DNA from: an uncultured Candidatus Micrarchaeota archaeon
GTDB lineage: Archaea > Micrarchaeota > Micrarchaeia > Micrarchaeales > Micrarchaeaceae
Direction of reading: 5' to 3'
Assembly (NCBI GenBank): GCA_963741095.1
Contig: CAVUGN010000011.1
Location: forward strand, 1 to 64,000
DNA length: 64,000 nucleotides
The notes under the pieces are model-generated. The model made no database searches, had not been told where the DNA came from, and saw nothing but the letters and a program-made list of their open reading frames with translations. The translations under genes and the position numbers were made by a program. Positions 33,341 to 58,322 of the stretch are shown piece after piece. Every line of letters begins with the position of its first letter. Position 1 is the first letter of the stretch.

Positions 33341-33416
33341 GGGGAGCTACGCTAACCTGGCAGACCATCAGCCTTGGGCGCTGACAATCGGAGTTCAAAT
33401 CTCCGGCTCCCCACCA
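33341..33416 (+). tRNA. tRNA-Pro (TGG), integration target of the island
   Basis: Acceptor ggggagc/gctcccc plus ACCA; anticodon arm tcagc-ctTGGgc-gctga; T-loop ttcaaat. Confidence 0.92.
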
Positions 33417-33475
33417 GGAAAATTATCGACGACAAAATTCGCCTTTTCGACGTATGTTGGAGATGTGGACTGTAT
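33403..33475 (+). repeat. attL-like site (tRNA 3' end plus right arm)
   Basis: ccggctccccaccaggaaaattatcgacgacaaaattcgccttttcgacg; no left arm. Confidence 0.85.
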
Positions 33476-33535
33476 TCAACAAAACTACATGTAAATCTGG
33501 TATAGTTCCAGGTATAGTCTTGAGTATAGCTTATA

Positions 33536-33796
33536 TTATTTCCTATACTCATAATGGCTCACGGCCTTGCCGTACCTGCTACTTATGTTCTTTGAGATGT
33601 AATCAGCGACATCTAACGGCTCCTTGCCGTCCGTGAACCTGGCCTTGACCACGAATCCGCAGTCGCCTTCGGTCAGTAGGACCTCCTTGACGGACTCGAA
33701 CATCATCAGCTTCTCTGCGATCCCGCCGGCGTCTGCGTTCTCTTTTGGCCTTACGAAATAGAGCCCGTACATCGCGCCTATTCTCTTTTTACCCAT
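33536..33796 (-). CDS. Stand-alone Lrp/AsnC ligand-binding (RAM)-like domain, module 1
   Basis: VKEVLLTEGDCGFVVKA resembles RAM motif; identical protein at 38745. Confidence 0.6.
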   Translation of the reverse strand: MGKKRIGAMYGLYFVRPKENADAGGIAEKLMMFESVKEVLLTEGDCGFVVKARFTDGKEPLDVADYISKNISSRYGKAVSHYEYRK

Positions 33797-33811
33797 GTCA
33801 ATCCACCATAA

Positions 33812-33952
33812 TCATAATCGGTCTATATCAAGCAACTTGACGAACACGCTGTGGCATCTGTCGCATTCCTCGATCACGAACCTGCCGTTCACCACCCGCT
33901 TGCACACCAGCCTTCCTGTTCTGCACCTGCTGCATGCAACGCCGCCGTTCAT
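33812..33952 (-). CDS. 46-aa zinc-ribbon protein (not in ORF track), module 1
   Basis: MNGGVACSRC...EECDRCH; overlaps upstream stop (ATGA); conserved at 39021. Confidence 0.75.
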   Translation of the reverse strand: MNGGVACSRCRTGRLVCKRVVNGRFVIEECDRCHSVFVKLLDIDRL

Positions 33953-34218
33953 CCCTCGATCACCTTACCGTATTCACCGTCCAGTCCTTTCGATATGTAC
34001 GCGGCAGCGTCCTTGGGTTCAGCACCGACGAAAAACTTCACCTTCGCCAGGAACACGCCCTTGTTTTCCATCAAGTTGACTGCCTTCACGCGCTTTAGGG
34101 CAAGGAGCCTTTCCGCAAGACGTTCGCTGACACCGCTCTTCGAATTCCCGAAGTAGAGACGGTGCCAAACCGCATGGCTCGCGCTAACCCTTGTTATTTT
34201 TCCACCCGTATTACACAC
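33949..34218 (-). CDS. Small RAM-like protein, module 1
   Basis: LAERLL..VKAVNLMENKG; conserved copy at 39161. Confidence 0.6.
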   Translation of the reverse strand: MCNTGGKITRVSASHAVWHRLYFGNSKSGVSERLAERLLALKRVKAVNLMENKGVFLAKVKFFVGAEPKDAAAYISKGLDGEYGKVIEG

Positions 34219-34264
34219 CCACTTATTTGCTTACTTTTACATCATCCTGACAAACATGAAAATA

Positions 34265-34465
34265 TCATCTGGACGCTAAAACAGCCCGCGCGGATCCGGA
34301 TCCGTCAAGCAGCATAACCGACCTTCCGGTCCTTTCCAGCTCGCACGCGTTAATGTGCCAAAGATATGCGACTGGATTCTCATGCTCCATACCGCACATC
34401 CAGCACTGGTATGCATTATCGTGCCCTCCCAAAAAGATATCTTTTATTCTTGTTCCCATGCCCAT
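34265..34465 (-). CDS. C2HC zinc-finger small protein, module 1
   Basis: CWMC-x12-H-x3-C; four copies in island. Confidence 0.75.
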   Translation of the reverse strand: MGMGTRIKDIFLGGHDNAYQCWMCGMEHENPVAYLWHINACELERTGRSVMLLDGSGSARAVLASR

Positions 34466-34477
34466 TCTACCACCCCA

Positions 34478-34579
34478 TCAATCATGAGGGTAGGGGGTTG
34501 CACCGCGGAAGCATGGTGATAATGTGGAGGACGAGCTTGCGCTGATCCGTAGAAAATTCTTACTTCCACCCCTGTACAA
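34478..34579 (-). CDS. 33-aa leader ORF MYRGGSKNFLRISASSSSTLSPCFRGATPYPHD (TTG start), module 1
   Basis: First ORF after TATA-like site, GGGTG RBS; homologs have ATG at the same position. Confidence 0.5.
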   Translation of the reverse strand: MYRGGSKNFLRISASSSSTLSPCFRGATPYPHD

Positions 34580-34770
34580 CCTACACACCCATATGATATT
34601 ATGAACTTTGTTGTATATATAAGCAGCCTCGGTTTTTAAGCTGAAGAAACTATAAAAATTGCTATTTTTGTTTAATATTTTTCCAGTTATTCAAATATCA
34701 TATACTGTATAATTAGGAATATAGAGGAGATTAGTAAAGTATAAATATCTGGCTCTATACAATATTATAT

Positions 34771-36192
34771 ATGAAAGAGATACCTTTTGAGGCAAACAAG
34801 GAGCTCGAGCGCCTCAAGAAAGAGTACAAAGCGTACCTTTACGTCAGGATCATAGACGGAAAGTTCTATGTCTACAAAGGGAGCTCAATTTGGGATAAAG
34901 AAACTAAGAAGGTGAGGGGGCTTACCGAGTATCTAGGACGGATAGATGAAAACGGGAAGTTCATAAAGAAGATTTCTAACAAAAAAAAGATCCCGATACA
35001 GACGCTCGTTCAAGGAACTGCTCCGCAAGCCATCCAAACGCTGGTCGACCAGTCTGAGATAAAATTATTGAGAATCCTGAGCATGAATGCAAAGGCAGAT
35101 TTGTCTTTTCTCGGAAAGAAGTTTCTAGGGATCAACTCTTCCGCAACATTCTACAAAGTAAGGCAGCTGAAGGAGAGATATGGCATAAAGGGTATTGCTG
35201 AAATAGATGTTACGAAGCTTGGCTACACTGACTATATAGCTTTTGTGAAATTCGAGGGCGACAAGCCAAGCGCGGATAACATAAGGAAGGCCACTTTGGA
35301 CGAAAGCCAGGTGCAACTAGTGCTTGCTACCAACGGCGAATATGACTTAATAATATACTTCTTAGCCAAGGATAATTTCGATGCATCGGAATTCATATTC
35401 AATTTGAGGTACAAGGAGCATCTGAAGACATGTATATCACAATGGTATTTCTCTCCCATTGACATATGTTATAACTTTATTCCATTAAGAGACCAGTTTT
35501 TCGAGCTGATGAAAGAAAAAGTATGGGTAAAGAGCAGGGAAAGTCAACGCAGATTGGAGGGGCAGCTCACCATCAAGGAGTACAATATACTAAGGGAATT
35601 GAACAGAAATGGTGTCGCAAAGTTCTCAGAAATGGACAAGAAACACGGGCTGGGCGGGGAAGAAACCGCATACATCTACGAAAAGCTTATTGAGAGAGGT
35701 ATACTCAAGAGGATGACAGTAAGTCTTCAGAAAATACCTTTGCAATATAACGCAGTAATCATAATGGGTGTGGTTGACAACAATGGCTTCAGGCGGACTA
35801 GAGACAGGCTGCTGATGGATGTAATAGAGGAGAACGGTACGCCTATCAACAAGTATTCTGTAATGGGAAACATAGGAAACCCTGATGGCGTCATGTTTAT
35901 AATGCCGATAACTCCGAACAACAGGCTCGATGTATTCGAAAGTGAGTTCAAGGAGAGGATAAAAGGTGTGGCACTTAGAACTCTCATAGTCACTGACGTG
36001 CTCGTTGGTTCATTATGTTACAGGAAGTTTGACAACGCAAAGTCTAGGCAATACCGGGCACTGCGGATGGAGGGCAATACAGAGCTATCATTAGCCGATG
36101 TAGACTACGATGAAACAGTTAGAAGGAAGCAAGTTATCAAGAAAGGTGAGGATACAATAGAAGAACTACTCGCCAATAATGAAAATATATAA
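34771..36192 (+). CDS. Tandem Lrp/AsnC-type regulator with N-terminal beta-sheet domain, module 1
   Basis: GKFYVYK..WDK..YLGRI N-domain; two wHTH+RAM units. Confidence 0.8.
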   Translation: MKEIPFEANKELERLKKEYKAYLYVRIIDGKFYVYKGSSIWDKETKKVRGLTEYLGRIDENGKFIKKISNKKKIPIQTLVQGTAPQAIQTLVDQSEIKLLRILSMNAKADLSFLGKKFLGINSSATFYKVRQLKERYGIKGIAEIDVTKLGYTDYIAFVKFEGDKPSADNIRKATLDESQVQLVLATNGEYDLIIYFLAKDNFDASEFIFNLRYKEHLKTCISQWYFSPIDICYNFIPLRDQFFELMKEKVWVKSRESQRRLEGQLTIKEYNILRELNRNGVAKFSEMDKKHGLGGEETAYIYEKLIERGILKRMTVSLQKIPLQYNAVIIMGVVDNNGFRRTRDRLLMDVIEENGTPINKYSVMGNIGNPDGVMFIMPITPNNRLDVFESEFKERIKGVALRTLIVTDVLVGSLCYRKFDNAKSRQYRALRMEGNTELSLADVDYDETVRRKQVIKKGEDTIEELLANNENI

Positions 36193-36248: not shown

Positions 36249-36269
36249 CTACCCTCCTGGTCCTTCCAT
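36249..36269 (-). CDS. Micropeptide MEGPGG
   Basis: TATTTAAG TATA, GGTGA RBS, ATG, stop TAG; one per module. Confidence 0.72.
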   Translation of the reverse strand: MEGPGG

Positions 36270-36444: not shown

Positions 36445-36675
36445 GTGATGAAGATGACAAACATGACACTGGCCCTGCCGGAAGCGCTCACTGAGATAAT
36501 GAAACGGCACAAGGACATAAAATGGAGCGAGGTGGCCCGCGAGGCCATCTGGGACAAGGCGAGGAAGCTGGAGCTCATGGACAAGATCCTCTCCAAGAGC
36601 GAATTGACCGAAAAGGACGCGTTGGCGATAGGCGCGAAGATAAACGAAGCCGTAGCTAAGAGGCATGGGTTATAA
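36445..36675 (+). CDS. RHH-like antitoxin (VapB-type)
   Basis: MTLALPE..IKWSEVAREAI; upstream of PIN toxin. Confidence 0.75.
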   Translation: MMKMTNMTLALPEALTEIMKRHKDIKWSEVAREAIWDKARKLELMDKILSKSELTEKDALAIGAKINEAVAKRHGL

Positions 36676-37084
36676 CGTGATCCTGGTCGTGGACGCCAAT
36701 GTGGTGATTGCCGCATTGGTAAAGAATGGCAAAGTGCGTGAGATCCTGCTTAGCGACAAGTTCAAGTTCGTCGCACCTGATTTCGTGAAAGAGGAGACTC
36801 TGAAATACCTCGATCTAATAAAACAAAAGTCGGGACTTGCGAAAGACGACCTGGACCTGCTCATAACCCTACTGTTCCAAGAGATAGAAACCATACCCAG
36901 AAGCGAGTATCAATCGCAACTTCCCAAAGCCGAAAGGATGATAAAAAATGATGTAAAGGATGCACCATACGTTGCATGCTACCTGGCGCTGAAATGCGAC
37001 GGGATCTGGACGAACGACTCGGACTATGATGGAAAACCAGAACTGAAAGTGTTCAAAACAGAATACCTTCTGAAATTATTGTAA
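36665..37084 (+). CDS. PIN-domain toxin (VapC-type)
   Basis: VVDANVVIAAL, KDAPYVA, IWTND. Confidence 0.85.
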   Translation: MGYNVILVVDANVVIAALVKNGKVREILLSDKFKFVAPDFVKEETLKYLDLIKQKSGLAKDDLDLLITLLFQEIETIPRSEYQSQLPKAERMIKNDVKDAPYVACYLALKCDGIWTNDSDYDGKPELKVFKTEYLLKLL

Positions 37085-37104: not shown

Positions 37105-37179
37105 GCATCGTCGAACCATGTTGAACCACGTCGAACGACGTCGTTTCCCAATTGCACTTTTACGACGAAGAACCGGCTC
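37105..37179 (+). repeat. Left att arm with truncated core (ccggctc)
   Basis: catcgtcgaacca...cgtttcccaattgcacttttacgacgaagaaccggctc. Confidence 0.8.
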
Positions 37180-37190
37180 GCGTCGTGCTA

Positions 37191-37511
37191 CTAGATCTCC
37201 AAACCCTCTTTGAGAGCGGCACTGACCAAAGTGATACCTTTTGCCTCCCTCTCGAACTCATTTTTGGTGTAGCTTAAGAAATCCACGGGATAGTCTATCC
37301 CCTGCGATACGTGCCATTCCAAAAGGAGCTTGCTGATCAGCTTCTTTACGGGTTTCCTGATCACAACCAGAAGGTCCACATCGCTGTCCTTCTTTGCCTC
37401 GCCTCTTGCCGAAGAACCGAAGAGTATGATCCGCTCTATTCCGTACGGCTTGGCGACGCTCTCCTTGAAGCCTTTTATCGTTTTTATCAATTGAGGATTG
37501 ACCTTACCCAT
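37191..37511 (-). CDS. Minimal nucleotidyltransferase (MNT)
   Basis: LFGSSARG..DSDVDLLV. Confidence 0.88.
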   Translation of the reverse strand: MGKVNPQLIKTIKGFKESVAKPYGIERIILFGSSARGEAKKDSDVDLLVVIRKPVKKLISKLLLEWHVSQGIDYPVDFLSYTKNEFEREAKGITLVSAALKEGLEI

Positions 37512-37846
37512 TCCAAAACACCTTCACACTTTTCAATCACGTCCTTTGCTTCATCTTCCGAAACGGACCTTGTTACTGGATAGCGCGTATCCACGTAATA
37601 CTCGGTAAGATCGGCACAATAATTAACTATCTCTGCAGTTGCCTTAATGCTTTGGGCGAGCTTCACGAGGTCATGCGTCCTGTCAAATCGGCTCAACTTC
37701 TCTATCTGTGCAGCTTTCAACGCCTTCTCCGCTACCTGCTGGGCATAAAAGGATGCGTCCTTGAGCCTCTCGCTTTCATAGAGAAGCTTTGCAGTCACGA
37801 GATTGTCCTCGGCTTCTTTTATCCACACTCGTGCATCATCTTTCAT
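37487..37846 (-). CDS. HEPN-domain protein
   Basis: QQVAEKALKA, THDL, TRYP; paired with MNT. Confidence 0.85.
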   Translation of the reverse strand: MKDDARVWIKEAEDNLVTAKLLYESERLKDASFYAQQVAEKALKAAQIEKLSRFDRTHDLVKLAQSIKATAEIVNYCADLTEYYVDTRYPVTRSVSEDEAKDVIEKCEGVLEWVRSILN

Positions 37847-37977
37847 GTCCTCATAAGAATTTGCCTTAAAAACCTTAATAATGTTTGCAGTTGGGCCACA
37901 TTCATCCAAAATATTTGAATATGTGTTTTTTTTAAGTGAGTCTTATTCCTTCGTAATGACTCCTAACTCGAAACACA

Positions 37978-38021
37978 AACATCGTCGAACCACTTCGAAC
38001 ACCGTCGTTTCCCAATTGCAC
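37978..38021 (+). repeat. Partial left att arm
   Basis: aacatcgtcgaaccacttcgaacaccgtcgtttcccaattgcac. Confidence 0.75.
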
Positions 38022-38071: not shown

Positions 38072-38320
38072 GTGATAAAGATGGAAATGGAAGTGTACGG
38101 ATTCAAAGCCAAGATAACCAAGGAAGGTAAGTATCTCATAGGCGAGATACCGGAGCTGCATGTAGCTGATCAGGCCAAGACCCTGAAGGAACTCGAGAGC
38201 GAACTCAAGGATGCGGTAAGCCTAGTTGTAAATCTTATCCTGGACAATCCAAAAGATGCAGCCAAGAACTTCGGTAACGGTGTCATAAGAAAGCTGAGCG
38301 TTCAGGTAATCCGCGCATAG
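38072..38320 (+). CDS. HicB-like antitoxin
   Basis: KEGKYLIGEIPEL..QAKTLKE pattern. Confidence 0.75.
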   Translation: MIKMEMEVYGFKAKITKEGKYLIGEIPELHVADQAKTLKELESELKDAVSLVVNLILDNPKDAAKNFGNGVIRKLSVQVIRA

Positions 38321-38328
38321 GTGTATCC

Positions 38329-38550
38329 ATGTCGCGGTTACGCCCGCTGAAAAGTCCTCTCCTCATAAAGGTGCTGCAGAAATACTACGGCTACAACGCA
38401 CGCTCTGGAAGCGGCAGGCATATAGTTTTGCAGGACTCGGATGGTCATACGACTGTGATCCAGCTTAACATGGAACTCGGCAAAGGCATCCTGAAGAAGA
38501 TACTAAATCAAACTGATTTGAAGTGGAAAGAAATAGAGAAGTACCTCTAA
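38329..38550 (+). CDS. HicA-like toxin
   Basis: GSGRHIVL..TTVI..LGKGILKKIL. Confidence 0.78.
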   Translation: MSRLRPLKSPLLIKVLQKYYGYNARSGSGRHIVLQDSDGHTTVIQLNMELGKGILKKILNQTDLKWKEIEKYL

Positions 38551-38553
38551 ATG

Positions 38554-38684
38554 ACATCGTCGAACCACGTCGACCAACGATGTTTCTCAATCACACTTTT
38601 ACGTCGAAGGACCGGCTCCCCACCAGGAAAATTATCGACGACAAAATTCGTCTTTTCGATGGATGTTGGAGATGTGGACTGTAT
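38554..38684 (+). repeat. attP-like junction (left arm, core 38612-38622, right arm)
   Basis: cacttttacgtcgaaggaCCGGCTCCCCAccaggaaaattatcgacgacaaaa. Confidence 0.85.
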
Positions 38685-38744
38685 TCAACAAAACTACATG
38701 TAAATCTGGTATAGTTCCAGGTATAGTCTTGAGTATAGCCTATA

Positions 38745-47002: not shown

Positions 47003-48946
47003 TCACTTAATGGTTTTTTTTAAGTTCTCGATGTACACGGGTTCGATTGGATCTGCCGGTTCAAATCCGAATATTTTGGAGTAGAAGTAAAGTTCCGTGT
47101 CTATGGAGCGTTTTATGCTTTCGGCCTTCCTGAAACTATGCCCCTCCTCATTAAATAGCAAATAAGCCGTACTCAGGCCCTTGTCACGGACTGCCTTGAA
47201 CATCTTCTCGGTCCTGCCTGGTGGGACTACCTTGTCTTCAGTGCCCTGAAAGAATATCACCGGGCATGATAACTTATCCACGGAATTTATGGGGGACCTC
47301 TCTGCGTAGACATCGCGCATTTGCGGATATGGCCCAACAAGTCTTTCCAAATAACCGATTTCAAACTTATTCTTGTCATCGTTTTCAAGTGCTTCGAGAT
47401 CGCTCATGCCGTAATAGCTTGCCCCCGCCTTGAAAAAGTTTCCGAAGGTAAGTGCACAGAGTGCGGTGTAGCCCCCCGCGCAGTTTCCACGGATGATAGC
47501 GCATTTTTCGTTTATCCTACCCTTTTCAGCAAGGTACTTGGCTCCGTTTATGCAATCCTCCATATCAACTATGCCCCACATCCCCTTTATCCTCTCGCGG
47601 TATGCTCGTCCATATCCCGTGCTTCCTCCGTAGTTCACATCAAGCACCGCGAACCCCCTACTTGTCCAGTATTGCGTCTCAAATGACAGGACTGGTTTTG
47701 ATATGCCTGTAGGACCAGCATGACTGAATACGATGAGTGGCGGTGACTCACCTACGGGAGAGACGTAATCCGCATTATGCTGTGGATAGAAGAATGCATG
47801 CGCCGTCGCCTTGCCAGAAGGGAACTCTATCGCCTCCGGAATTGAGATATATCTTGGGTCAATACGAGCTTTTGCCGAACGACGCAGGACATTGAACTTC
47901 CCACTATCCAGATTCAGGCTCACGATTGAAGCTGGCTCTGTTGGGGATGCACCGAGGAATGCCACCATATCTGATGTGACACGCACATCGTTCATCGCAG
48001 TGTATGGTAGTTCCACGTTCTTAATCTTCTTACTCTCGGTGTCAAGTACCGCAAGGTGTGAGTACCCTCCTTTGTTGTAAACACAAACCACTTCCTTTGC
48101 GGATCTGAATCCGTACATCGACATATTGAGTTCGCGCTGCTGCTCCCCGAACTCTGCCTCCATCTTGCATAACTGCTCCGTCTTACCGTCGCGCAAACGG
48201 TACAGGTTCCACCATCCGGTTCTGTCGGATACAAAATAAAGGCTGCCGTCTGGAGACCATTTTGGCTGGAAGATTGACTCGGTTGCAGAGCCAGCAACGC
48301 ATTTTGCATCGTTGATTGACCCGTCATTGCCCAGTGCTCCAACCCAGAGCTCGGACCCGTCCCAAGGCATATTCGGATTGTTCCACGCAATCCACGCAAT
48401 ATGTGAGCAGTCTTTGTCAAGGCATGGAGACGAATAGAAATCGTTTCCAGACGCCAAGATCTTTTCGCTACCCATGTCGCCTGCGTCGAGACCCACTAGC
48501 GAATTGACTATGTTCTTTTCCTCAGTATGGTCCTCCCTGACGCAGATTACCCTGTTGTGTTTCTTGTCAAGCACATAATCCGCATATCTCATCCTTGATT
48601 CTAACGTCATAGGTTTGGGTGGAGAATCACCACGAAGGAGATAGACACGCTGGTCTTTGAAATTAGAGAAACATATCATGTCATCAGACGCCAGATAACT
48701 GCCCCCTCCGTGTTCATGCACTTTGGAACGAACATTGAATTCCCTCCCAATACAATCAATTAGCGTTCCATCATCAGTTCTTTTCACGATTACACTTCTA
48801 CCTTCTTCCACAGGCCGCCCCTCATTCCAGTAGATATCCCCATTGTTTATAGTTATCTCGGAAAGGCGTATTGCTGCCGATGCGATGACGGCGGAAGTTA
48901 TCGGCGACTTCCACGAACCGAAAGGCGCTGTTTTGGTGCTGGACAT
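47003..48946 (-). CDS. S9 (prolyl oligopeptidase/acylaminoacyl peptidase) family protein with Cys at the nucleophile position
   Basis: APFGSWKSPI, VNYGGSTGYG, RGNCAGG, D (GTEDKVV), H (EGHSF). Confidence 0.88.
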   Translation of the reverse strand: MSSTKTAPFGSWKSPITSAVIASAAIRLSEITINNGDIYWNEGRPVEEGRSVIVKRTDDGTLIDCIGREFNVRSKVHEHGGGSYLASDDMICFSNFKDQRVYLLRGDSPPKPMTLESRMRYADYVLDKKHNRVICVREDHTEEKNIVNSLVGLDAGDMGSEKILASGNDFYSSPCLDKDCSHIAWIAWNNPNMPWDGSELWVGALGNDGSINDAKCVAGSATESIFQPKWSPDGSLYFVSDRTGWWNLYRLRDGKTEQLCKMEAEFGEQQRELNMSMYGFRSAKEVVCVYNKGGYSHLAVLDTESKKIKNVELPYTAMNDVRVTSDMVAFLGASPTEPASIVSLNLDSGKFNVLRRSAKARIDPRYISIPEAIEFPSGKATAHAFFYPQHNADYVSPVGESPPLIVFSHAGPTGISKPVLSFETQYWTSRGFAVLDVNYGGSTGYGRAYRERIKGMWGIVDMEDCINGAKYLAEKGRINEKCAIIRGNCAGGYTALCALTFGNFFKAGASYYGMSDLEALENDDKNKFEIGYLERLVGPYPQMRDVYAERSPINSVDKLSCPVIFFQGTEDKVVPPGRTEKMFKAVRDKGLSTAYLLFNEEGHSFRKAESIKRSIDTELYFYSKIFGFEPADPIEPVYIENLKKTIK

Positions 48947-48958
48947 AATTGATCATCT

Positions 48959-50068
48959 CTAAATATGTGACGGCTGAATTCCCGGATATATTGAAAGTGG
49001 ATTGCTCACGAATTCCATCCTCGCAAAGCGTTCAAGTATCTCTTTTATCGAAAGATATATCTCATTGTGGGTCTTCCCCCTCAGATCCCACCTGTAAGCA
49101 GTATTGTTGCAATCGTCTATATGCAGAACCATGTTTGAAGAAACCAGCGGGTTGAACATCCCCTTTTCGCACATCTTTCCGAAAATAGGGCATTCGCTAA
49201 TGCAGTACTTTGGGTTGAAGAATGCTCCTCTAGAAGAGTTCAATAGCATGACCTTTACGCCACCCACATTCAGCGTGAGCTGGACAGACCCGAATCCCTC
49301 TTCGTTGGATACATCAACCTTTTCAATTTCGTAATCGTGCCTTATCATATTGAGAACTTCTTCGGAATTTATATAATTCCCTCTCCAGTATTCGATAGGC
49401 GAGAGACTCGAATATTTGCCAATACCTCCGTGTGCCCCGTTTGTGGCTATGTACTCATCCTGTATAAAGAGGTTGAACAGTTTCAACGAGAAACCAGACT
49501 TGGCCGCAAACTCGATCATACTGTTTACCTCGCCCATGGTCTGTTTTATTAGTACCATATTTATCCTAGTCTTTATGTCGCGTTCCGAGAGTTCCGATAG
49601 TAGCCTGCGGGTTTTGTCGTTAAGCACCTTGCAAATCCCCTCTTTTGGCTGGTTTGATGTAGAATCCAAGGAAAATTGTACGGATATCCGGTCCTTATGC
49701 CTCTCCAAAACATCCATATGTCGCTCGAGATTCTTTCCGTTAGTTATGACTACAAAATTAATTTCCGGATGAAGGTCCAATATCTTTTCAACCTCATTGA
49801 AAAGCCACTCTACGAGAGTCGGTTCGCCCCCACTGATCTTGAATTTGTCGAAGCCCAGATCGTAGGCCGCTGTAACAGTGGAGAAGAACTCTTCACCCGA
49901 CATATTCGCCCCGATGCTCTTGTTCTGCCCAAAGGGGTAGCAATAGCCGCACTTGTTATTGCATTCCTTTATTACTGCAATGGAGAAATATAACCCTCCC
50001 GCGATTTTTCTTAATTCGTTGTTCTGCACTCTCGTGGCAGATTCCGCTTTCGATGCTTGTTTCTCCAT
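48959..50068 (-). CDS. Radical SAM enzyme (MoaA-like core, Cys-rich C-terminus)
   Basis: CNNKCGYC, SGGEP, ITNG; C-terminal C-x3-C-x6-C..C. Confidence 0.85.
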   Translation of the reverse strand: MEKQASKAESATRVQNNELRKIAGGLYFSIAVIKECNNKCGYCYPFGQNKSIGANMSGEEFFSTVTAAYDLGFDKFKISGGEPTLVEWLFNEVEKILDLHPEINFVVITNGKNLERHMDVLERHKDRISVQFSLDSTSNQPKEGICKVLNDKTRRLLSELSERDIKTRINMVLIKQTMGEVNSMIEFAAKSGFSLKLFNLFIQDEYIATNGAHGGIGKYSSLSPIEYWRGNYINSEEVLNMIRHDYEIEKVDVSNEEGFGSVQLTLNVGGVKVMLLNSSRGAFFNPKYCISECPIFGKMCEKGMFNPLVSSNMVLHIDDCNNTAYRWDLRGKTHNEIYLSIKEILERFARMEFVSNPLSIYPGIQPSHI

Positions 50069-50089
50069 CTTTTCGCCCATCAGATAAGC

Positions 50090-52265: not shown

Positions 52266-52307
52266 TTAACCTCCGCCCCCTCCGCCTCCGCTTCCTCCTC
52301 CGTCCAT
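52266..52307 (-). CDS. Micropeptide MDGGGSGGGGGGG
   Basis: Conserved TATA/RBS; all four Gly codons used; stop TAA. Confidence 0.72.
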   Translation of the reverse strand: MDGGGSGGGGGGG

Positions 52308-52386
52308 AATATCACTGTTTAAACATCTCTAGAAAAGCTTAAATGGATTGTGTCTGTTTGAACTTGGCTAGCGCACATGTTTGTGC

Positions 52387-52515
52387 AAACATCGTCGAAC
52401 CACGTCGACCAACGTTGTTTCTCAATCACACTTTTACGATGATTGACCGGCTCCCCAGAGAAAAATTTATCGACGACAAAATCCGCCTTTTCGACGAATG
52501 TTTGAGATTTGAACT
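52387..52515 (+). repeat. attP-like junction (core 52447-52457)
   Basis: aacatcgtcgaaccacgtcgacc...CCGGCTCCCCAgagaaaaatttatcgacgacaaaa. Confidence 0.85.
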
Positions 52516-52559
52516 CAGAGTAGTAATCCTACACATCTTTGGGCGTGAACCCAAGGCAA

Positions 52560-53435: not shown

Positions 53436-54358
53436 TGTTCTACTTCAATATCAAGTGACTTGAATCTTTCTATTGACCTTTTCCAAATAGTACTCCATGG
53501 CTCATTGTAGGCATTTCCTAAAACTACTTCCCTTAAATTAAGACACGGAGTGACATCTCCATTGACAAGCACGCCTGCTTGGATAACTCCGGCTGTGCAG
53601 GTCTTGAAATGGTATGAGTCAAGCAATGTCTCTTCCACTCTATCCGTGCATCTCTCTATCACTTCTACCACTTTAACGTTTTCTCTATCTAGTTGAGATC
53701 TCATATCCTCAACTCTGAGCATCAGATCATACATTTCATGCCTATCAACCACCAAGTCTTGGTATTTGTTGGGATCCACTGCAGGTTGCAGAGGCTCCAA
53801 GTTCAGCAGCTTCATCTGACTATATTTCTTCATCAAGACCTCCGTACTATTGAGCACATCATCCTGGTTTGCCTTAGTTATGACTATCCCGACTGTAAAG
53901 GGTATTTCATTTCTCTCAAGTATGTCAAGACCATCCAGAGTCTCAGCAGTCTTTCCTCGCGTCCTATCGTTTATTTCCGATCTTACACTATCTAAAGAGA
54001 CTTGGATTGCGGCATCATTTCCTACGGCATTCTTTAATCTCATTAACTCTTCTTTTGTAAGCCTATTTATCAGCGTGCCATTGGTACTCACTTCCACTAC
54101 AGTCTTGAACGTGTTCTTTGCGAGTTCAAACACATCAACTATATCTCTTCTACTAAAGGGTTCTCCACCGATCAACAGTATCTCGAAGGGATTTGCCTCT
54201 TCCTTTGTTTTCTCAAAGAGATTTTTGAGTCTTTCGAGGGGTGGAGTGATATGAGTGAATGGCTGAGCATAACAGTAGGTGCAATTAAGATTGCACCCAC
54301 TTACCACTTCAAACTCCACCCTGAAAGGCAAACTTGGCAATATCTTCTGAGCCATCAT
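53402..54358 (-). CDS. Radical SAM/SPASM(twitch) peptide-maturase-like enzyme
   Basis: CNLNCTYC, GGEP, CTAG..GDVTPC..LGN. Confidence 0.85.
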   Translation of the reverse strand: MMAQKILPSLPFRVEFEVVSGCNLNCTYCYAQPFTHITPPLERLKNLFEKTKEEANPFEILLIGGEPFSRRDIVDVFELAKNTFKTVVEVSTNGTLINRLTKEELMRLKNAVGNDAAIQVSLDSVRSEINDRTRGKTAETLDGLDILERNEIPFTVGIVITKANQDDVLNSTEVLMKKYSQMKLLNLEPLQPAVDPNKYQDLVVDRHEMYDLMLRVEDMRSQLDRENVKVVEVIERCTDRVEETLLDSYHFKTCTAGVIQAGVLVNGDVTPCLNLREVVLGNAYNEPWSTIWKRSIERFKSLDIEVEQCQCRAAKVNM

Positions 54359-55314
54359 GCACTCGCCTTGCTTCTGCATTGCATTCCCTTTGGAAGAGTT
54401 TCGTATCTTTCAAGAGATCTTACCCATATATCATGCCACGACTCCTTAAACACGTTTCCGATGTTTGCGTCTCTCATCAGTGCGCATGGGGATACATTTC
54501 CATTTGGGAACACTGTTGCTCTGAACACTCCAGCCAAACACGTATCCATTTTGTATGTGTCGAGTACAGCAGGATCATTGCAGGCGCACTTGTCACCAGT
54601 TCCTGTGATTCGAACTGAACTACCCATGCGTGCTGCAGTACCGCGAACTTGTACAATCAGAGCTGCCATCTCTTTTGCTCCGATGTCCAAGCTCTCATGA
54701 TATCTCTCTTTATTTGAGAGGTTTGGCATCATTCGGTTCAAGTTAATCCCATGCAGGTGCTTGAACTCTGACATGAAGGCGACTTCGGTATCCATTATAT
54801 CGTTGATATTCTCCTTGCTTACTACCGTTCCGATTGAGAATGGAATTTGATGGTCATCCATCTTTTGCATCCCTCTGAAAACGGTGTCAGTCTTTCCTCT
54901 CAGCATATTGTTCAAAGAAGGCTTTGCGCTGTCTGCAGATATTTGGATAAAGGCATCATCTCCTGCTATTTTCTTTAGTCGTGCAAAGTCAGCTTCAGTC
55001 ATTATGTCGAAGGCCGTTCCATTTGTGACTACTCCTACTCTCCTCCCAAAAAGGTTCCTCGACTCTTCAATCACGTCTAGTACGTCTTTGCGTGTGAATG
55101 GCTCGCCTCCGCAAAGGATTACCTCGAAGGGGTCTACTTCTTGCTTCGTCTTCTGAAGCATATATATCACGTCAACCAGAGGAGGCTCGTAATGTGAAAG
55201 GGGCTGGGCATAGCAATTTGGACATGCTAGATTGCACATTCCAGTCACCTCAATCTCTACTCTGAATGGAACTTGTGGCAGAATCATGTTTTTATTCTCC
55301 ATATCAAACCCCAT
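54355..55314 (-). CDS. Radical SAM/SPASM(twitch) enzyme, paralog of the next gene
   Basis: CNLACPNC, GGEP, CLAG..GNVSPC..IGN. Confidence 0.85.
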   Translation of the reverse strand: MGFDMENKNMILPQVPFRVEIEVTGMCNLACPNCYAQPLSHYEPPLVDVIYMLQKTKQEVDPFEVILCGGEPFTRKDVLDVIEESRNLFGRRVGVVTNGTAFDIMTEADFARLKKIAGDDAFIQISADSAKPSLNNMLRGKTDTVFRGMQKMDDHQIPFSIGTVVSKENINDIMDTEVAFMSEFKHLHGINLNRMMPNLSNKERYHESLDIGAKEMAALIVQVRGTAARMGSSVRITGTGDKCACNDPAVLDTYKMDTCLAGVFRATVFPNGNVSPCALMRDANIGNVFKESWHDIWVRSLERYETLPKGMQCRSKASA

Positions 55315-55325
55315 TTGGGTGGCAG

Positions 55326-55718
55326 TTAGACTGCCACCGTTTCCAGAAGATTCGGGTATTCTGCCCTAACATCTTCTACGTTCCTATCCAGTATGCTTTT
55401 CAGCAGACCGATAGTCTTTGCTGGAGCTGTGAAGATAGTGCTATCTTTCAGATTCATGATGAATCCGAAGAGTCCATCTTCTCTTACCTTGATACACTCA
55501 GACACCTTCATATCTGTTCCCCTTAGGAGTCCGGGTGTCAAAGGATTTATGCTGGAATTCATCCAATTGGAATGGCTCATCCAATTGCCATGACCATAGC
55601 CTCCAGCGTATGGCTTTTCTGCCCATTCTTGCTTTGCTCCAACTCTTGAGTACAGCTGTATGCCATACTCATTCTGCACTCTCGTGGCAGACTCCGCTTT
55701 TGATGCTTGTTTATCCAT
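55326..55718 (-). CDS. Putative RiPP precursor fused to a PqqD/RRE-like domain
   Basis: Repeated HGNWMS/HSNWMN core, then a 61-aa beta-beta-beta-alpha-like domain; heads rSAM operon. Confidence 0.5.
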   Translation of the reverse strand: MDKQASKAESATRVQNEYGIQLYSRVGAKQEWAEKPYAGGYGHGNWMSHSNWMNSSINPLTPGLLRGTDMKVSECIKVREDGLFGFIMNLKDSTIFTAPAKTIGLLKSILDRNVEDVRAEYPNLLETVAV

Positions 55719-55739
55719 CTTTTCACCCAATAGATAAGC

Positions 55740-56006
55740 TCAACTCTCGACCATCGATACGAATGCCCTGCTGATGCCGCGCGACGCGCGGTCCTTCTCG
55801 TTCTTCAGTTCGCTGTCGTCCCTGTAGAACCTGACCTCTGCCACGCAGTCGCCGTTGCTGTCGTAGAGAGGGATGCGCTGCCTGCGCCATATGTCCATCA
55901 GCCTCTCCGCGAGGTCGCCTTTCCCGCCCTTCAGCTGCAGGAATACGGTCCTGCACAACCCTTTCTTGCCTTTTCCGCTCGCTTGCGCTAGCTTGTTAGT
56001 TGTCAA
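55740..56006 (-). CDS. Small conserved protein (distant RAM-like), module 6
   Basis: Paralog of 44364. Confidence 0.6.
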   Translation of the reverse strand: MTTNKLAQASGKGKKGLCRTVFLQLKGGKGDLAERLMDIWRRQRIPLYDSNGDCVAEVRFYRDDSELKNEKDRASRGISRAFVSMVES

Positions 56007-56048
56007 TTTCCCACCCAGTTTACTTTACACCCGCTTAACGTAATCTGA

Positions 56049-56225
56049 TTAACTCCTTGGATTCGCGTCTATCATGACGCTCATGCTCCCGGCTGACAGC
56101 TCCATCATATCGGATATGTAACCACCCACTTCGCTCTCCTTGCAATACGCCTTACCCTCCACACTGTTTGTGTGTACCCTCACGAGAACGTTCTTATCTA
56201 GCAATTTTCCTATTATGTTGTTCAT
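56049..56225 (-). CDS. Conserved small protein, module 6
   Basis: Paralog of 44669; ATG after GGTGAG. Confidence 0.65.
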   Translation of the reverse strand: MNNIIGKLLDKNVLVRVHTNSVEGKAYCKESEVGGYISDMMELSAGSMSVMIDANPRS

Positions 56226-56238
56226 CTCACCACACCAA

Positions 56239-56370
56239 TCATAAATATAATGGTGGGAGATTAGAGAGAAAGGCAGATATCGGACGTGGTAGAACTGAGG
56301 CCCGTTTGGGAAGAATTGTTGAAACAACGTGCATGCAAGAAGCCTGCACCCTCGTATTCAGAACCGACAC
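56239..56370 (-). CDS. 43-aa non-homologous leader ORF, module 6
   Basis: GTG after GGGTGA at the same position as the other leader ORFs. Confidence 0.35.
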   Translation of the reverse strand: MSVLNTRVQASCMHVVSTILPKRASVLPRPISAFLSNLPPLYL

Positions 56371-56570
56371 TGTTATCACCCACCAAGTCAATAATATGAA
56401 TTTTGGACTATATATAGATGGCTTAGGGAGAAAGACATTCGCCATGCTCAAAGCGTTAATTAATACACCAATTTTTCGGTATAAGTTGCCAAAGTTAGTG
56501 TTACTGATAGGTATTCTTAACCATGCTACTAAGCGAAATCCTTAAATAGTATATATGTTGCAATTTACTT

Positions 56571-58025
56571 ATGCCTGATGTGCCGGCCAGCGTTGCGAGG
56601 GCGTACGAGAGCATAAAGGGAGAGTATCCGTACTTCGTAAGCCTGAAGAAGATCCACGGCAAATACTTTTATTTGTACAAGCAGAGCGTGCGGTGGGACA
56701 AGGAAGAGAAAAAACGGAAGACAGTTTCGAAGTACTTGGGCAAGATAACTCCTGATGGGCGTTTCATAAAGAAGATGCCTGGTCTGAGCAAGGATCTCGG
56801 TAGGGCAATGGCGGTAATAGAGTCTTATGGCGGCACCGTGGTCCTTCCCGAGAAAAGGGAAAGCGAACTGCAGGCTACGGCTTTAGAACAAGGCATCAGC
56901 GAAATCGACGACAGGTTGCTGACGGTACTTAGCATGAACGCAAGAGCAGACCTGTCGTACTTCGGGAAACAGATGGGCCTGACTGCATCGGCTACCTATT
57001 CAAGAGTAAGGCACCTCGAGCAGAAGTACGGGATAGGGTACGTCCCCGAGATAGACATCAGGAAGCTTGGCTACCTTACTTACATGATATTCGTGAAGTT
57101 CGCGGAACAGCCGCCCAGCGCAGACTTGACGAAAGAAGCACTGAAAAAAGAACCTATAATTCAGCTTGCCCTCCTGACACAAGGCAGGTATGACATAGTT
57201 ATGTATGCCACGGTCGAGAATAGCGACGAGGCAAGGACACAGATCTACGAGCTACAGGCGCGGGTGTTCCCGACTTATGAAGCGGAGTGGCATGTGGTGC
57301 CCTTCTACCCCACCTACGGCTTCGTGCCCCTGAGGCAGGAATTCTTCGACCTGCTCGCGCAATCGGTATGGAAAAGGACGAAAGAGCAGCCGAGAAAGCG
57401 CAAGGGCCAGCTGACTCAGAAAGAGTACATTGTGCTCAGGGAGCTTAACGCCGATGGCGCAGCGAAGTTCTCCGAGATAGACAGAAAGCATGGGTTCGTC
57501 GGGGAGGGCGCGGCTTATACGTACCGCAAACTTATCGATACGGGGTTACTGAAAAGGGTAACCATGACGATGCGGAGATTGCCCATGCAATACACGGCGA
57601 TGTTACTTGCAGATATAACAAACAGGGCAAAGTACGCCACGAGCAGGGAGAAGCTGCTGAAGGGGATAATCGAGAAAACTGCCACGCCAACCGATAGGTA
57701 CGCCCTTGTCGGGGACAGGTGGACGCCTTTCGGCGTAGTATTTGTGGTGCCGATATTCGGGGAAGTAGACCTAGAGAAAGCTGAGGGAGTAATAAAGAGC
57801 AGAATAGACGGCATCCAATTGGACAGGCTGATCGTGCTGGGCACATCAATAGGTTCAATGTGCTTTAGACGATTCGATAACAATTATTCCAACCAGCACA
57901 GGCTTCTGGTCGAGGAGTATAAGATGAAGGACTCGCTGAGAATGGATTACACGCTGACTGGAAAGGGGGGCATGTCTAGGATTTTAGGCGAAAACGAAGA
58001 TAATCTTGCAGAAGAAGATAGCTAA
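56571..58025 (+). CDS. Tandem Lrp-type regulator, module 6
   Basis: IDDRLLTVLSMNARADL HTH; GRYDI RAM. Confidence 0.8.
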   Translation: MPDVPASVARAYESIKGEYPYFVSLKKIHGKYFYLYKQSVRWDKEEKKRKTVSKYLGKITPDGRFIKKMPGLSKDLGRAMAVIESYGGTVVLPEKRESELQATALEQGISEIDDRLLTVLSMNARADLSYFGKQMGLTASATYSRVRHLEQKYGIGYVPEIDIRKLGYLTYMIFVKFAEQPPSADLTKEALKKEPIIQLALLTQGRYDIVMYATVENSDEARTQIYELQARVFPTYEAEWHVVPFYPTYGFVPLRQEFFDLLAQSVWKRTKEQPRKRKGQLTQKEYIVLRELNADGAAKFSEIDRKHGFVGEGAAYTYRKLIDTGLLKRVTMTMRRLPMQYTAMLLADITNRAKYATSREKLLKGIIEKTATPTDRYALVGDRWTPFGVVFVVPIFGEVDLEKAEGVIKSRIDGIQLDRLIVLGTSIGSMCFRRFDNNYSNQHRLLVEEYKMKDSLRMDYTLTGKGGMSRILGENEDNLAEEDS

Positions 58026-58104
58026 ACACCATGAAAAATACTGTGCAGAACATATATGATTACTACCATGAATGCGCTTTTCAGTCGCCATTAATCATAA
58101 CGCT

Positions 58105-58128
58105 CTAACCGCTAGCTCCGCCATCCAT
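58105..58128 (-). CDS. Micropeptide MDGGASG
   Basis: Conserved TATA/RBS; stop TAG. Confidence 0.72.
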   Translation of the reverse strand: MDGGASG

Positions 58129-58254
58129 AATCTCACTGTCCAAACCTCTCTGAAAAGGCTTAAATAGCTTGTGTTCTGATTGATGGCAGGCGAGCGCTCC
58201 ATGCCTAGGCGCGGAGCGCCTAGAACAGTGCATGGCCAACATCAATCAGTAATG

Positions 58255-58322
58255 CATGTTGAACAGCGTCGAATCAACATCGTTTCCCAATCACACTTTT
58301 ACGACGAAGAACCGGCTCCCCA
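58255..58322 (+). repeat. attR-like site (left arm plus core 58312-58322, no right arm)
   Basis: cgtttcccaatcacacttttacgacgaagaaCCGGCTCCCCA then unrelated sequence. Confidence 0.85.

Follow-up and report, generated by a model that had tools for sequence, protein, structure and literature searches.

The window considered here, a stretch of 64,000 nucleotides, comes from a Micrarchaeota (DPANN) genome (G000), a MAG of 1.08 Mb in 11 contigs that is 94% complete and represents a tiny symbiotic archaeon. Downstream of a replication factor C small subunit gene (Pfam scan), it carries a tRNA-Pro(UGG) gene followed by four units that are delimited by repeats of the tRNA 3′ end (Table 1). The repeated core, CCGGCTCCCCA, occurs exactly five times in the window, always on the forward strand (shuffle mean 0.03; 0/100 shuffles reach five), and nowhere else in the genome, with core-to-core spacings of 5209, 8233, 5602, and 5865 bp. 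When the five flanks were aligned, a left arm was found before copies 2 to 5 and was absent before copy 1, while a right arm was found after copies 1 to 4 and was absent after copy 5. The count of the core copies, the distribution of the arms, and the attL-attP-attP-attP-attR geometry given in a preliminary description of this DNA were all reproduced. The arms bear repeated hexamers, are 83–88% identical between units over repeats of only ~130 bp (self-BLAST), and are confined to this array within G000. The DNA next to them is unrelated from unit to unit, and the starts of units 1 and 2 share 93% identity over 1.2 kb (self-BLAST). Two further junctions inside unit 1, one ending in half a core and one lacking the core, had escaped the preliminary description and represent decay where the site was not kept. 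Predicted single-strand folding of four junctions was no better than that of shuffles (z −0.7 to +0.6). The composition of the array is foreign, its GC content of 0.41–0.50 being lower than that of most of the remaining window (0.53–0.60; contigs 0.49–0.53).

Table 1. Features of the tRNA-Pro(UGG) locus, in window coordinates.
Feature	Position	Strand	Basis or remark
tRNA-Pro(UGG), integration target	33341..33416	+	ARAGORN; Rfam RF00005, 42.8 bits
Core copy 1 (attL), last 11 nt of tRNA-Pro(UGG)	33403-33413	+	
Right arm of unit 1	33414..33487	+	Boxes TCGACGAC ... TTTTCGACG ... GAGATGTGGAC
Unit 1, conserved small genes: two 86-89-aa proteins, weak RAM-domain likeness	33536-33796, 33949-34218	-	ORF clustering; NCBIfam only weak LrpA 80-123 match, E 0.006
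Unit 1, conserved 66-aa Cys/His protein	34265-34465	-	ORF clustering
Lrp-like p1, 473 aa: predicted N-terminal beta domain and two wHTH+RAM repeats	34771..36192	+	
Mini-ORF of p1, MEGPGG-stop	36249..36269	-	Convergent on p1; TTTAAG box and GGTGA upstream
Unit 1, cargo: 76-aa ORF without family match, and PIN-domain protein (36665-37084)	36445..37084	+	Pfam PIN_2, E 5e-26
Unit 1, decayed junction: left arm and half core CCGGCTC, then unrelated sequence	37117..37186	+	Self-BLAST
Unit 1, sub-cassette: nucleotidyltransferase (37191-37511) and HEPN (37487-37909) pair	37191..37909	-	Pfam
Unit 1, distal left-arm remnant without core	37976..38021	+	Self-BLAST
Unit 1, sub-cassette: 82-aa ORF without match, and HicA-like toxin (38329-38550)	38072..38550	+	Pfam HicA_toxin, E 4e-7
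Junction 2: left arm, core, right arm	38553-38611, 38612-38622, 38623-38696	+	
Lrp-like p2, 498 aa	39972..41468	+	
Mini-ORF of p2, MEGGGTGGNG-stop	41489-41521	-	
Lrp-like p3, 459 aa	42243..43622	+	
Mini-ORF of p3, MGDGGGA-stop	43639-43662	-	
Lrp-like p4, 470 aa	45155..46567	+	
Mini-ORF of p4, MDGGGPGGG-stop	46645-46674	-	
Junction 3: left arm, core, right arm	46786-46844, 46845-46855, 46856-46926	+	
Unit 3, cargo: S9 prolyl-oligopeptidase-family protein (47003-48946), radical SAM protein (48959-50080)	47003..50080	-	Pfam; NCBIfam matches all below family cut-offs
Lrp-like p5, 441 aa	50919..52244	+	
Mini-ORF of p5, MDGGGSGGGGGGG-stop	52266-52307	-	
Junction 4: left arm, core, right arm	52388-52446, 52447-52457, 52458-52515	+	
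Unit 4, cargo: 291-aa protein without family match	52560-53435	-	Pfam, NCBIfam
Unit 4, cargo: two radical SAM/SPASM proteins	53402-54379, 54355-55314	-	Pfam, NCBIfam
Lrp-like p6, 484 aa	56571..58025	+	Paralogue modelled
Mini-ORF of p6, MDGGASG-stop	58105-58128	-	
attR: left arm and core copy 5	58255-58311, 58312-58322	+	

The cargo differs from unit to unit. Most units hold several genes, which lie on both strands and have their own promoter-like boxes; no conjugation module was found anywhere. Each unit of the array contains at least one gene for a tandem-Lrp protein of ~470 aa, always paired with a convergent Gly-rich mini-ORF, and unit 2 contains three such modules. This conserved module, whose product is predicted to bind DNA, had been missed in the preliminary description. 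It is widespread in the order, the ~470-aa protein being present in 37/41 related genomes (a set that includes G000) at up to 12 copies per 1-Mb genome, with 12 paralogues in G000. Pfam matches to HTH_AsnC-type or HTH_24 families were obtained for five of the six array paralogues and to AsnC_trans_reg, just under the cut-off, for one; a profile of the protein matched PH1519 in the PDB (E 2e-16), and its N-terminal beta domain of ~70 aa belongs to no Pfam family. The p6 model (pLDDT 84.7) consists of this beta domain and a tandem Lrp/AsnC arrangement of two wHTH+RAM repeats; its fold matches comprised only Lrp regulators and NirDL, the best whole-chain match being NirDL 4ch7. The ~470-aa protein is predicted to have the defining Lrp/AsnC layout, in which an N-terminal wHTH precedes a RAM (ligand-binding) domain; any role in transcriptional regulation is putative. 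It shares the two wHTH+RAM repeats with Lrp/AsnC (feast/famine) regulators and fused NirDL/AhbAB, but differs from both in its extra N-terminal domain, its copy number, and its mini-ORF partner.

The absence of a recognisable recombinase from the array, as noted earlier, held in ORF scans and six-frame family searches. The larger array ORFs gave no recombinase in Pfam, NCBIfam, or PHROGs scans, and a six-frame search of the whole genome with PF00589, PF00239, PF07282, PF01797, PF01867, PF00665, and PF01609 gave no match in the array and, for PF00589, none anywhere on the contig that bears it. Rep and capsid families were likewise absent from the array in Pfam and PHROGs ORF scans. The ORFs across junctions 2–4 show no likeness to the resident integrase and no Pfam family, a database search with a 44-aa junction ORF returned no match, and no integrase fragment was found at either end of the units. 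A phage satellite of the PICI type was also considered and rejected, with 0 PHROGs families among nine array proteins scanned and no integrase, replication, helper-interference, or packaging Pfam families; the term ‘satellite’ used in the preliminary description is unsupported, there being no evidence of virus dependence.

The only PF00589 match in G000 is an SSV-type tyrosine integrase on a different contig (C9:84468-85445). SSV-type (‘suicidal’) archaeal integrases are described for SSV1, pTN3, and pT26-2 (PMC8371274; PMC7253208), and the consulted part of the former review contains no mention of DPANN. The layout of that family, an integrase gene that contains attP and is split to the ends of the element, is present on C9, where the ORF reads through tRNA-Arg(tct), the start codon is found at the opposite end of the 4.2-kb element, before a 36-nt tRNA copy, and the gene is split by its own integration. 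It is absent from the array, where the identity segment is 11–14 nt as opposed to 36 nt. In relatives, a co-oriented tRNA immediately precedes 19 of the 20 loci of this integrase family, and in 7 of these 19 CGACGACAA (≤1 mismatch) lies 10–13 nt past the tRNA end, which corresponds in position and sequence to the first right-arm box of the array, TCGACGACAAA, ~12 nt past the tRNA end. The exact 9-mer of this box occurs 31 times in G000, seven of them 10–25 nt past a tRNA end or core copy. The common first box at the same offset links the array to the SSV-type family. The array right arm probably originated as the 5′ end of an SSV-type integrase gene and would now persist as a DNA binding site, the basis for this being a short motif (IIDDK versus FYDDK/FDDK) and its position. 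As to the recombinase that the preliminary description proposed to look for elsewhere in the genome or in viruses, SSV-type integrases are a candidate helper family, but the resident integrase targets other tRNAs, and no cognate enzyme specific for tRNA-Pro(UGG) was detected in G000 or in the related genomes G150 and G069, the latter having no PF00589 match at all at 88% completeness. Searches with the attachment-site patterns gave no match in JGI metagenome contigs and chance matches only in IMG/VR.

The same attachment system occurs at tRNA-Pro(UGG) in G150 and G069, in both cases without an integrase at the locus. G150 has one integrase-less unit of 4.9 kb between tRNA-Pro and a junction of left arm, core, and flank; its left arm is 90% identical to that of the array over 39 nt, and the flank after its attR resembles that after the array (CTTGCATTTGTCGTCGG...). 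In G069, which belongs to another family, tRNA-Pro and a right arm are followed 1.85 kb further on by a second core and right arm, giving at least two junctions; the only genes in this unit encode a HAD hydrolase and an aldolase-like protein. Within the 1.79 Mb searched, no genomes other than G000, G069, and G150 matched the right-arm pattern, and none of 12 other tRNA-Pro loci of relatives (8 of them with at least 11 kb downstream) has a repeated tRNA-Pro 3′ end. Site occupancy varies between relatives, as the comparison proposed in the preliminary description had anticipated: at least four units in G000, one in G150, at least one plus a second junction in G069, and none at the 12 other loci.

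Together, these features are best explained, with a probability of about 0.55, by non-autonomous integrative elements that accreted as an array at tRNA-Pro(UGG), resemble CIMEs, and are served in trans by an SSV-type integrase; the identity of this enzyme, its action in trans, and the present-day mobility of the units are inferred. Each element would once have been a circle with a composite site of left arm, core, and right arm, which recombined with the tRNA 3′ end by a crossover within CCGGCTCCCCA; later arrivals would have inserted at one of the regenerated cores, yielding the order tRNA/R ... L/core/R ... L/core/flank. The enzyme would most likely be an SSV-type tyrosine integrase whose own gene spans its attachment site, provided by an episomal or integrated relative. 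Since the elements carry no insertion enzyme of their own, they probably depend on one from elsewhere.

CIMEs and site-specific accretion are described for ICESt1/ICESt3-related islands of Streptococcus (PMC5704250). According to the account given there, CIMEs have lost the integration genes, have kept attL and attR, and are arranged in tandem at a target-gene 3′ end. The array units keep attL and attR, in which the target end is directly repeated and bordered by element-specific arms; together with the lack of an integrase, this state defines a CIME. CIMEs rely on the integrase that a related element provides (PMC5704250), whereas such dependence is putative here, as is mobilisation itself, and the array differs further in its archaeal DPANN host, the lack of a conjugation module, a presumed helper with the attachment site inside its own gene, and its at least four members plus sub-cassettes. 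Tycheposons of Prochlorococcus, as presented in bioRxiv 10.1101/2020.12.28.424599, are also cargo elements at tRNA genes with partial-tRNA flanks, in which each new integration displaces earlier elements into an island that also holds degenerate remnants and additional partial tRNAs; they encode a site-specific integrase and in many cases replication genes, neither of which is found in the array units. Integrons, which have been reported in Archaea (bioRxiv 10.1101/2022.02.06.479319), share with the array the alignment of cassettes at one insertion point with a recombination site after each, and some cassettes in G000 are single operons (the 0.6–0.8 kb sub-cassettes of unit 1; single-gene units at tRNA-Ser). 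The earlier label ‘integron-like’ fits in this loose sense, but the cassettes line up at a tRNA 3′ end that has no adjacent IntI-type integrase, the junctions do not fold above shuffles, and most units hold several genes on both strands.

A less probable explanation, though the strongest of the alternatives, is that once-autonomous SSV-type elements were trapped by their split integrase genes, which were then deleted, leaving immobile chromosomal DNA. SSV-type integrases are described as disrupted by integration and unable to excise without an intact copy (PMC8371274, PMC7253208); the resident tRNA-Arg element is in exactly such a split state, unit 1 contains decayed junctions, and no circular junction, deletion joint, or empty tRNA-Pro site was seen in per-run contigs at depth 2–9. 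However, none of the four units has lost either arm, and both arms persist across three genomes from two families next to unrelated DNA, whereas unconstrained remains would be expected to deteriorate as the junction at 37976 has done. A right arm truncated in the same way, without an integrase body, recurs in every unit, in G069, and in G150, which argues that the integrase-less form itself spread.

It is improbable that the ~470-aa protein, by itself or together with the small conserved proteins, guides or catalyses insertion without a classical recombinase. Its presence in every G000 unit, ending 200–290 bp before the core in units 2–4, and in the G150 unit is consistent with such a role, as are the hexamer repeats of the arms, which would suit a multimeric DNA-binding protein, and an N-terminal domain outside Pfam; furthermore, 18/41 related genomes (again counting G000) have no PF00589 match, whereas 37 of them carry the Lrp-like protein. 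However, the p6 model contains no nuclease, recombinase, or transposase fold, and 6 of the 12 G000 paralogues belong to no att-bounded unit. The attachment site is also found without an Lrp-like gene, in the G069 unit and in the small sub-cassettes of unit 1, and in G150 the gene faces the opposite way with respect to the site.

An origin without any site-specific step, in which paralogous Lrp modules multiplied by segmental duplication and homologous recombination and carried the short tRNA-like repeats with them, is already disfavoured and very improbable. The modules that flank the Lrp-like genes share 75–98% DNA identity with one another in the array and with loci on contigs C5 and C10, and three lie in unit 2, but the Lrp-like genes themselves are just 31–42% identical in protein and the cargo differs between units. 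The repeat also begins exactly at the tRNA 3′ end, its arms occur nowhere else in the genome, and in G069 and G150 the cargo enclosed by the same site is unrelated.

Collapse or chimeric joining of repeats during assembly, raised in the preliminary description, is scarcely credible even for a MAG of 11 contigs with short, low-depth run contigs, because per-run contigs span junction 3 (46659-46971; contig X3 record 19) and junction 4 (52346-52786; contig X1 record 5) without a single difference, the repeats are short and diverged, the unit contents are distinct, and the same architecture is found in two independent genomes. The runs may include the source sample of the genome. In three of the four runs, contigs connect a full core and a unit-1-type right arm to a left arm resembling that at 37117, a junction absent from the assembly that counts in favour of the accretion array; these variants, 11–17 letters off the reference, may represent another strain rather than a circle. 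Elsewhere in the genome, a 145-bp right-arm plus left-arm derivative of the C9 integrase element lies at tRNA-Lys.

The tRNA-end 11-mer CCGGCTCCCCA occurs five times on the plus strand at the positions given in the preliminary description and is absent from the rest of the host genome, while shuffled sequence yielded a mean of 0.03 copies and none of 100 shuffles reached five. The first copy is the 3' end of tRNA-Pro(tgg), and alignment of 150 nt on each side of every copy bore out the proposed layout, with a left arm before copies 2-5, a right arm after copies 1-4, and units of 5209, 8233, 5602 and 5865 bp. Self-BLAST of the 33-59 kb interval gave 83-88% identity among the junction regions and 93% identity between units 1 and 2 across their initial 1.2 kb. 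Self-BLAST and a second alignment also revealed two features missed earlier, a decayed junction and a distal left-arm remnant, both inside unit 1, which is thus itself composite. Unit 1 starts with a 3.8-kb element whose last gene, for a PIN-domain protein, comes after a small ORF; behind this element lie two small sub-cassettes that are toxin-antitoxin-like, one with a nucleotidyltransferase/HEPN pair and one with an 82-aa ORF and HicA. An archaeal replication factor C (RFC) small subunit is encoded directly upstream of tRNA-Pro, and the DNA to the right of the array (58323-60400) had no match among 40 relatives, nor did its proteins in 12 tRNA-Pro loci of relatives. The 64-kb window opens a 99.5-kb contig, one of 11 in a genome of 1,078,454 bp (scored 94% complete); the GC content is 0.41-0.50 in the array vs 0.53-0.60 across most other DNA of the window, in which low-GC stretches after tRNA-His and tRNA-Ile carry ordinary genes, for example those for a HAD hydrolase and NiFe hydrogenase subunits.

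Every unit combines a conserved module with variable cargo. The module has one or two minus-strand genes per unit for 86-96-aa proteins (7 members), in many cases joined by one for a 66-aa Cys/His protein (4 members). A gene for a ~470-aa Lrp-like protein (6 members, p1-p6, three of them in unit 2) is oriented divergently, and a tiny ORF converges on its 3' end. The cargo consists of toxin-antitoxin-like pairs in unit 1, an S9 peptidase and a radical SAM protein in unit 3, and two radical SAM/SPASM proteins with an uncharacterised 291-aa protein in unit 4. The absence of a recognisable recombinase or transposase, already remarked on from the sequence, was upheld for the array proteins scanned against Pfam, NCBIfam and PHROGs, which were also without match to replication or virion families. 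Six-frame searches, which are independent of ORF calling, gave 0 array matches to Phage_integrase, Resolvase, TnpB, Y1 transposase, Cas1, rve and DDE_Tnp_1.

Coordinates of the tRNA-Pro array, its Lrp-like loci and related structures (window positions unless a contig or locus is named; G000, host genome; L, loci taken from relatives)
Feature	Location	Strand	Remarks
Array	33403-58322		tRNA-Pro
tRNA-Pro(tgg)	33341-33416	+	holds core copy 1
Core copies 1-5 (starts)	33403, 38612, 46845, 52447, 58312	+	
Decayed junction	37117-37186		left arm, then CCGGCTC only
Distal left-arm remnant	37976-38021		
Array mini-ORFs	36249-36269, 41489-41521, 43639-43662, 46645-46674, 52266-52307, 58105-58128	-	
Further mini-ORFs	G000 C1, C5, C10; L004, L012, L014, L023, L024, L025, L039; G150:C1 ~65.6 kb		
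Conserved flanks of Lrp-like genes, window	34198-34623, 39410-39803, 41707-42048, 44826-45013, 50357-50779		
Conserved flanks, elsewhere in G000	C5:52201-52619, 58043-58704; C10:14744-15414		
SSV-type element	G000:C9:84426-88735		tRNA-Arg(tct); 4.2 kb; split integrase
145-bp derivative	G000:C1:106538-106757		tRNA-Lys(ttt); right and left arms of the C9 element only
Second tRNA-anchored array	G000:C2:21281-23400		tRNA-Ser(tga); outside the window
Two tRNA-Pro(tgg) genes, G006	L039 (G006:C8:38000-57999), 12496-12570 and 14826-14898		2.3 kb apart
GGGGTTATATA ... TTTTGCACCCC element	L052-L056 (five relatives); tRNA-Pro flanks L040, L042, L046, L047; G000:C2 after tRNA-Ser at 43839		

The attachment system extends to other genomes. 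When junction 3 was compared by BLAST with 248 genomes of the order, seven others gave partial matches. In G150, a relative of another genus assembled as one contig, a variant of the right arm comes after tRNA-Pro(tgg), and 4.9 kb downstream stand a left arm 90% identical to that of the array, a core (CCGGCCCCCCA) that matches G150's own tRNA, and a flank like that after copy 5. An Lrp-like gene, inverted and 51.5% identical to p2, lies in the unit so enclosed, together with a Gly-rich mini-ORF of 17 aa, the gene for one small conserved protein, a HicAB-like pair and a Nudix-like gene. This unit has no integrase, and the two integrases of G150 lie far off at tRNA-Arg(gcg) and tRNA-Glu(ctc). 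In G069, which belongs to another family and has 0 matches to the tyrosine recombinase family PF00589 (Phage_integrase) in its genome, the right arm at tRNA-Pro(tgg) is 82% identical to that of the array, and a second core and right arm follow 1.85 kb on, with a recognisably related left arm ahead; the unit contains just a HAD hydrolase and an aldolase-like gene. The attachment site therefore occurs with unrelated cargo and without the Lrp-like module, which argues against a need for the module in cis. The remaining five BLAST matches were set aside as a different conserved element that has a CGACGACA hairpin and lies downstream of other tRNA genes. The idea that occupancy would differ among relatives held true: units stand at tRNA-Pro in G150 and G069 and in none of 12 further loci, where RFC-tRNA synteny is intact and no repeated 3' end was found, so that the site is variably occupied. 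In another relative, G006, two tRNA-Pro(tgg) genes are 96% identical over 55 nt and differ at their acceptor/T-arm ends; an Lrp-like gene lies 2 kb past the second, a variant, full-length copy with no arm repeats. A weak integrase fragment near an Lrp-like gene in relative G004 was discarded, no att repeat being found there. Searches with a right-arm pattern and a core-plus-box pattern gave 0 matches in JGI metagenome contigs and 0 in IMG/VR; a looser pattern returned 22 IMG/VR stretches, all judged to be chance matches (20 at GC 0.60-0.72, none with arms).

The sole PF00589 match in the host genome lies on another contig, C9, beside tRNA-Arg(tct). Followed upstream, its integrase frame stays open across the tRNA gene and meets no start codon; 4.2 kb downstream the 3' part of the tRNA recurs as a 36-nt copy, with an ATG just ahead of it at which the same frame would open in a circular form. 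This element has the SSV-type layout, in which, according to a review of archaeal integration, the attachment site lies inside the integrase gene and the gene is split upon insertion (PMC8371274). Its cargo, read by eye from translations, is a reverse-transcriptase-like ORF and a HicAB-like pair. The link to the array is the right arm, which opens with TCGACGACAAA ~12 nt past the tRNA end. Of 31 exact copies of the 9-mer CGACGACAA in the host genome, 7 stand 10-25 nt past the end of a tRNA or past a copy of the core (tRNA-Lys, tRNA-Ser(tga), tRNA-Arg(tct) and junctions 1-4), and tRNA-Arg(cct) has a one-mismatch 9-mer with the rest of the right-arm architecture. A co-oriented tRNA lies just upstream in 19 of 20 relatives' loci of this integrase family; seven of these 19 carry the 9-mer (at most one mismatch) 10-13 nt past the tRNA end, and several more have two-mismatch variants by eye. 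In the relatives' elements the motif falls within the 5' coding region of the integrase (…FDDKAGF…). The matching frame in the array (…IIDDKIRLFD…) closes within ~30 codons, is shifted in junction 3 and stops even sooner in the G069 right arm; later right-arm boxes (TGTCG…, GAGATNTRNAC) are conserved at the DNA level despite this frame loss. A short motif and its position thus suggest that the right arm descends from the 5' end of an SSV-type integrase gene and is now kept as a putative binding site. A split integrase within the array itself was rejected, since the junction ORFs (38523-38714, 46776-47084 and 52343-52999) have neither a Pfam family nor likeness to the C9 integrase; the reading frame is not preserved from junction to junction, and a search for longer proteins containing the 44-aa junction ORF returned nothing. 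Across the lineage, 18 of 41 genomes, the host genome being counted in the total, lacked a Phage_integrase match at E<=0.001, among them a single-contig genome 96% complete, and a XerA-type chromosome resolvase may therefore be absent from much of it.

The closest known concept is that of cis-mobilizable elements (CIMEs), described in PMC5704250 as having lost their integration genes, kept attL and attR, and become stacked by accretion. We favour, at a probability of about 0.55, a CIME-like accretion array on which an SSV-type integrase acts in trans. Tycheposons share the tRNA target and the stacking but encode integrases (bioRxiv 10.1101/2020.12.28.424599). Tandem integration in archaea is already known, and the part of the archaeal review consulted holds neither integrase-less arrays nor DPANN cases (PMC8371274); no description of integrase-less tRNA-anchored arrays of this kind was found in the literature searched. 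The proposed likeness to integrons is loose at best, as the array departs from them in every defining feature tested; predicted attC-like folding of the junctions was no better than that of shuffles. A fossil array of trapped elements is a possible though less likely explanation, against which both arms are conserved across units and genomes.

A role for the Lrp-like protein in a new recombination system is improbable: its paralogues exist outside att-bounded units, such units exist without it, and its predicted fold speaks against it. The 470-aa profile matches Lrp/AsnC regulators of solved structure (PH1519, E 2e-16), and an AlphaFold model built on a 21-sequence alignment (mean pLDDT 84.7) places a helix and four strands in residues 1-67, followed by a disordered linker and two wHTH+RAM repeats. 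Foldseek returned a fused NirDL protein and single Lrp regulators, with no nuclease or recombinase fold among its matches; profile and predicted fold thus point to Lrp/AsnC, and a hidden recombinase was rejected. For the N-terminal domain, Pfam gave no family even with E as high as 10, and its nearest Atlas clusters are unnamed ~72-aa proteins (best 0.93; named families at 0.79 or below). Self-BLAST found no other att structures near the six paralogues that lie outside the array. Most genomes of the order (G026-G040 and others) also encode ~340-390-aa proteins matching only the tandem-Lrp part (profile positions ~100-440), which may be chromosomal ancestors of the element-borne form.

Duplication without site-specific recombination is a very improbable origin for the units. 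An assembly artefact is less credible still, junctions 3 and 4 being bridged exactly by read-derived contigs. Four runs of one study contain array sequence (31-58% of sampled words), and in their contigs, at depth 2-9 and for the covered parts of the array, no circle or deletion joint was found. A single apparent joint from 43673 to 58125 proved to be cross-mapping of a paralogous locus on contig C5, and loose contig ends at 41718 reflected a 98%-identical stretch of unit 1. Three runs contain a junction missing from the assembly, with a left arm like that at 37117, a full core and a unit-1-type right arm, showing that the decayed junction was formerly complete or is still complete elsewhere. 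Such a variant would be expected from an array in another strain as well as from a circle of the 3.8-kb sub-element; its 11-17 differences favour another strain.

The six array paralogues share just 31-42% protein identity, whereas the DNA on either side of Lrp-like genes is 75-98% identical between copies, a pattern of one hypervariable gene framed by conserved flanks. A mini-ORF with at least 40% Gly lies beside 11 of the 12 Lrp-like paralogues of the host genome, the twelfth having MSEGGWS on reading by eye. These ORFs span 5-17 codons (e.g. MEGGGTGGNG*), vary in peptide sequence from copy to copy, and are preceded by a TTTAAR box ~30 nt upstream and GGTGA/GTGA before the ATG; the pairing with an Lrp-like gene is also seen in relatives, and at locus L025 of one of them six such ORFs follow one another, each behind a GGTGA-type (GTGR) box. 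A genome-wide search of the host with the pattern promoter box, GTGA, ATG and Gly-rich ORF gave 13 matches, all within 450 bp of an Lrp-like 3' end and on the opposite strand. Our guess is that protein and mini-ORF form a copy-specific regulator-ligand pair. Most genomes of the order have this candidate regulatory module, which is well defined and open to testing.

The genomes of DPANN archaea are very small, and to our knowledge little is known of how these organisms gain genes. Here, foreign DNA stacked at a single tRNA gene amounts to ~25 kb, or 2.3% of the 1.08-Mb genome; it holds defence-type cargo and peptide-modifying enzymes and no insertion enzyme of its own. Should SSV-type integrases act on the units in trans, archaea would have a strategy like that of CIMEs, by which elements could persist and spread despite self-inactivating 'suicidal' integrases; the conserved arms are concrete substrates for a recombination assay. 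A broader proposal, which we consider doubtful as a whole, is that Micrarchaeota possess a tRNA-anchored gene-capture system whose larger elements are under the control of a receptor-peptide pair of their own. Arbitrary DNA of 0.5-8 kb (toxin-antitoxin pairs, radical-SAM/peptidase clusters, metabolic genes) would be stacked at tRNA 3' ends through a short, bipartite left arm-core-right arm site by an enzyme encoded outside the cassettes, and a tandem-Lrp protein with a new N-terminal domain would be paired with a directly translated, copy-specific Gly-rich peptide of 6-17 residues. By analogy with phage peptide signalling, such a pair could determine whether elements are maintained or mobilised, or whether those residing together are immune to one another.

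Two further tRNA-linked structures were observed. In the second array of the host genome, the tRNA-Ser(tga) 3' end CCAACCCTGGCGA has three further copies within 2.1 kb downstream, with a conserved left arm at two of the copies and no integrase; its single-gene units encode, on reading of translations by eye, a 179-aa P-loop kinase-like protein, a 128-aa protein and a methyltransferase-like gene product. A conserved element, GGGGTTATATA ... TTTTGCACCCC, lies downstream of various tRNA genes in the order and is followed in five genomes by an 8-9-bp hairpin (CCGACGACA ... TGTCGTCGG); it may be the promoter of the next gene or the end of another element.
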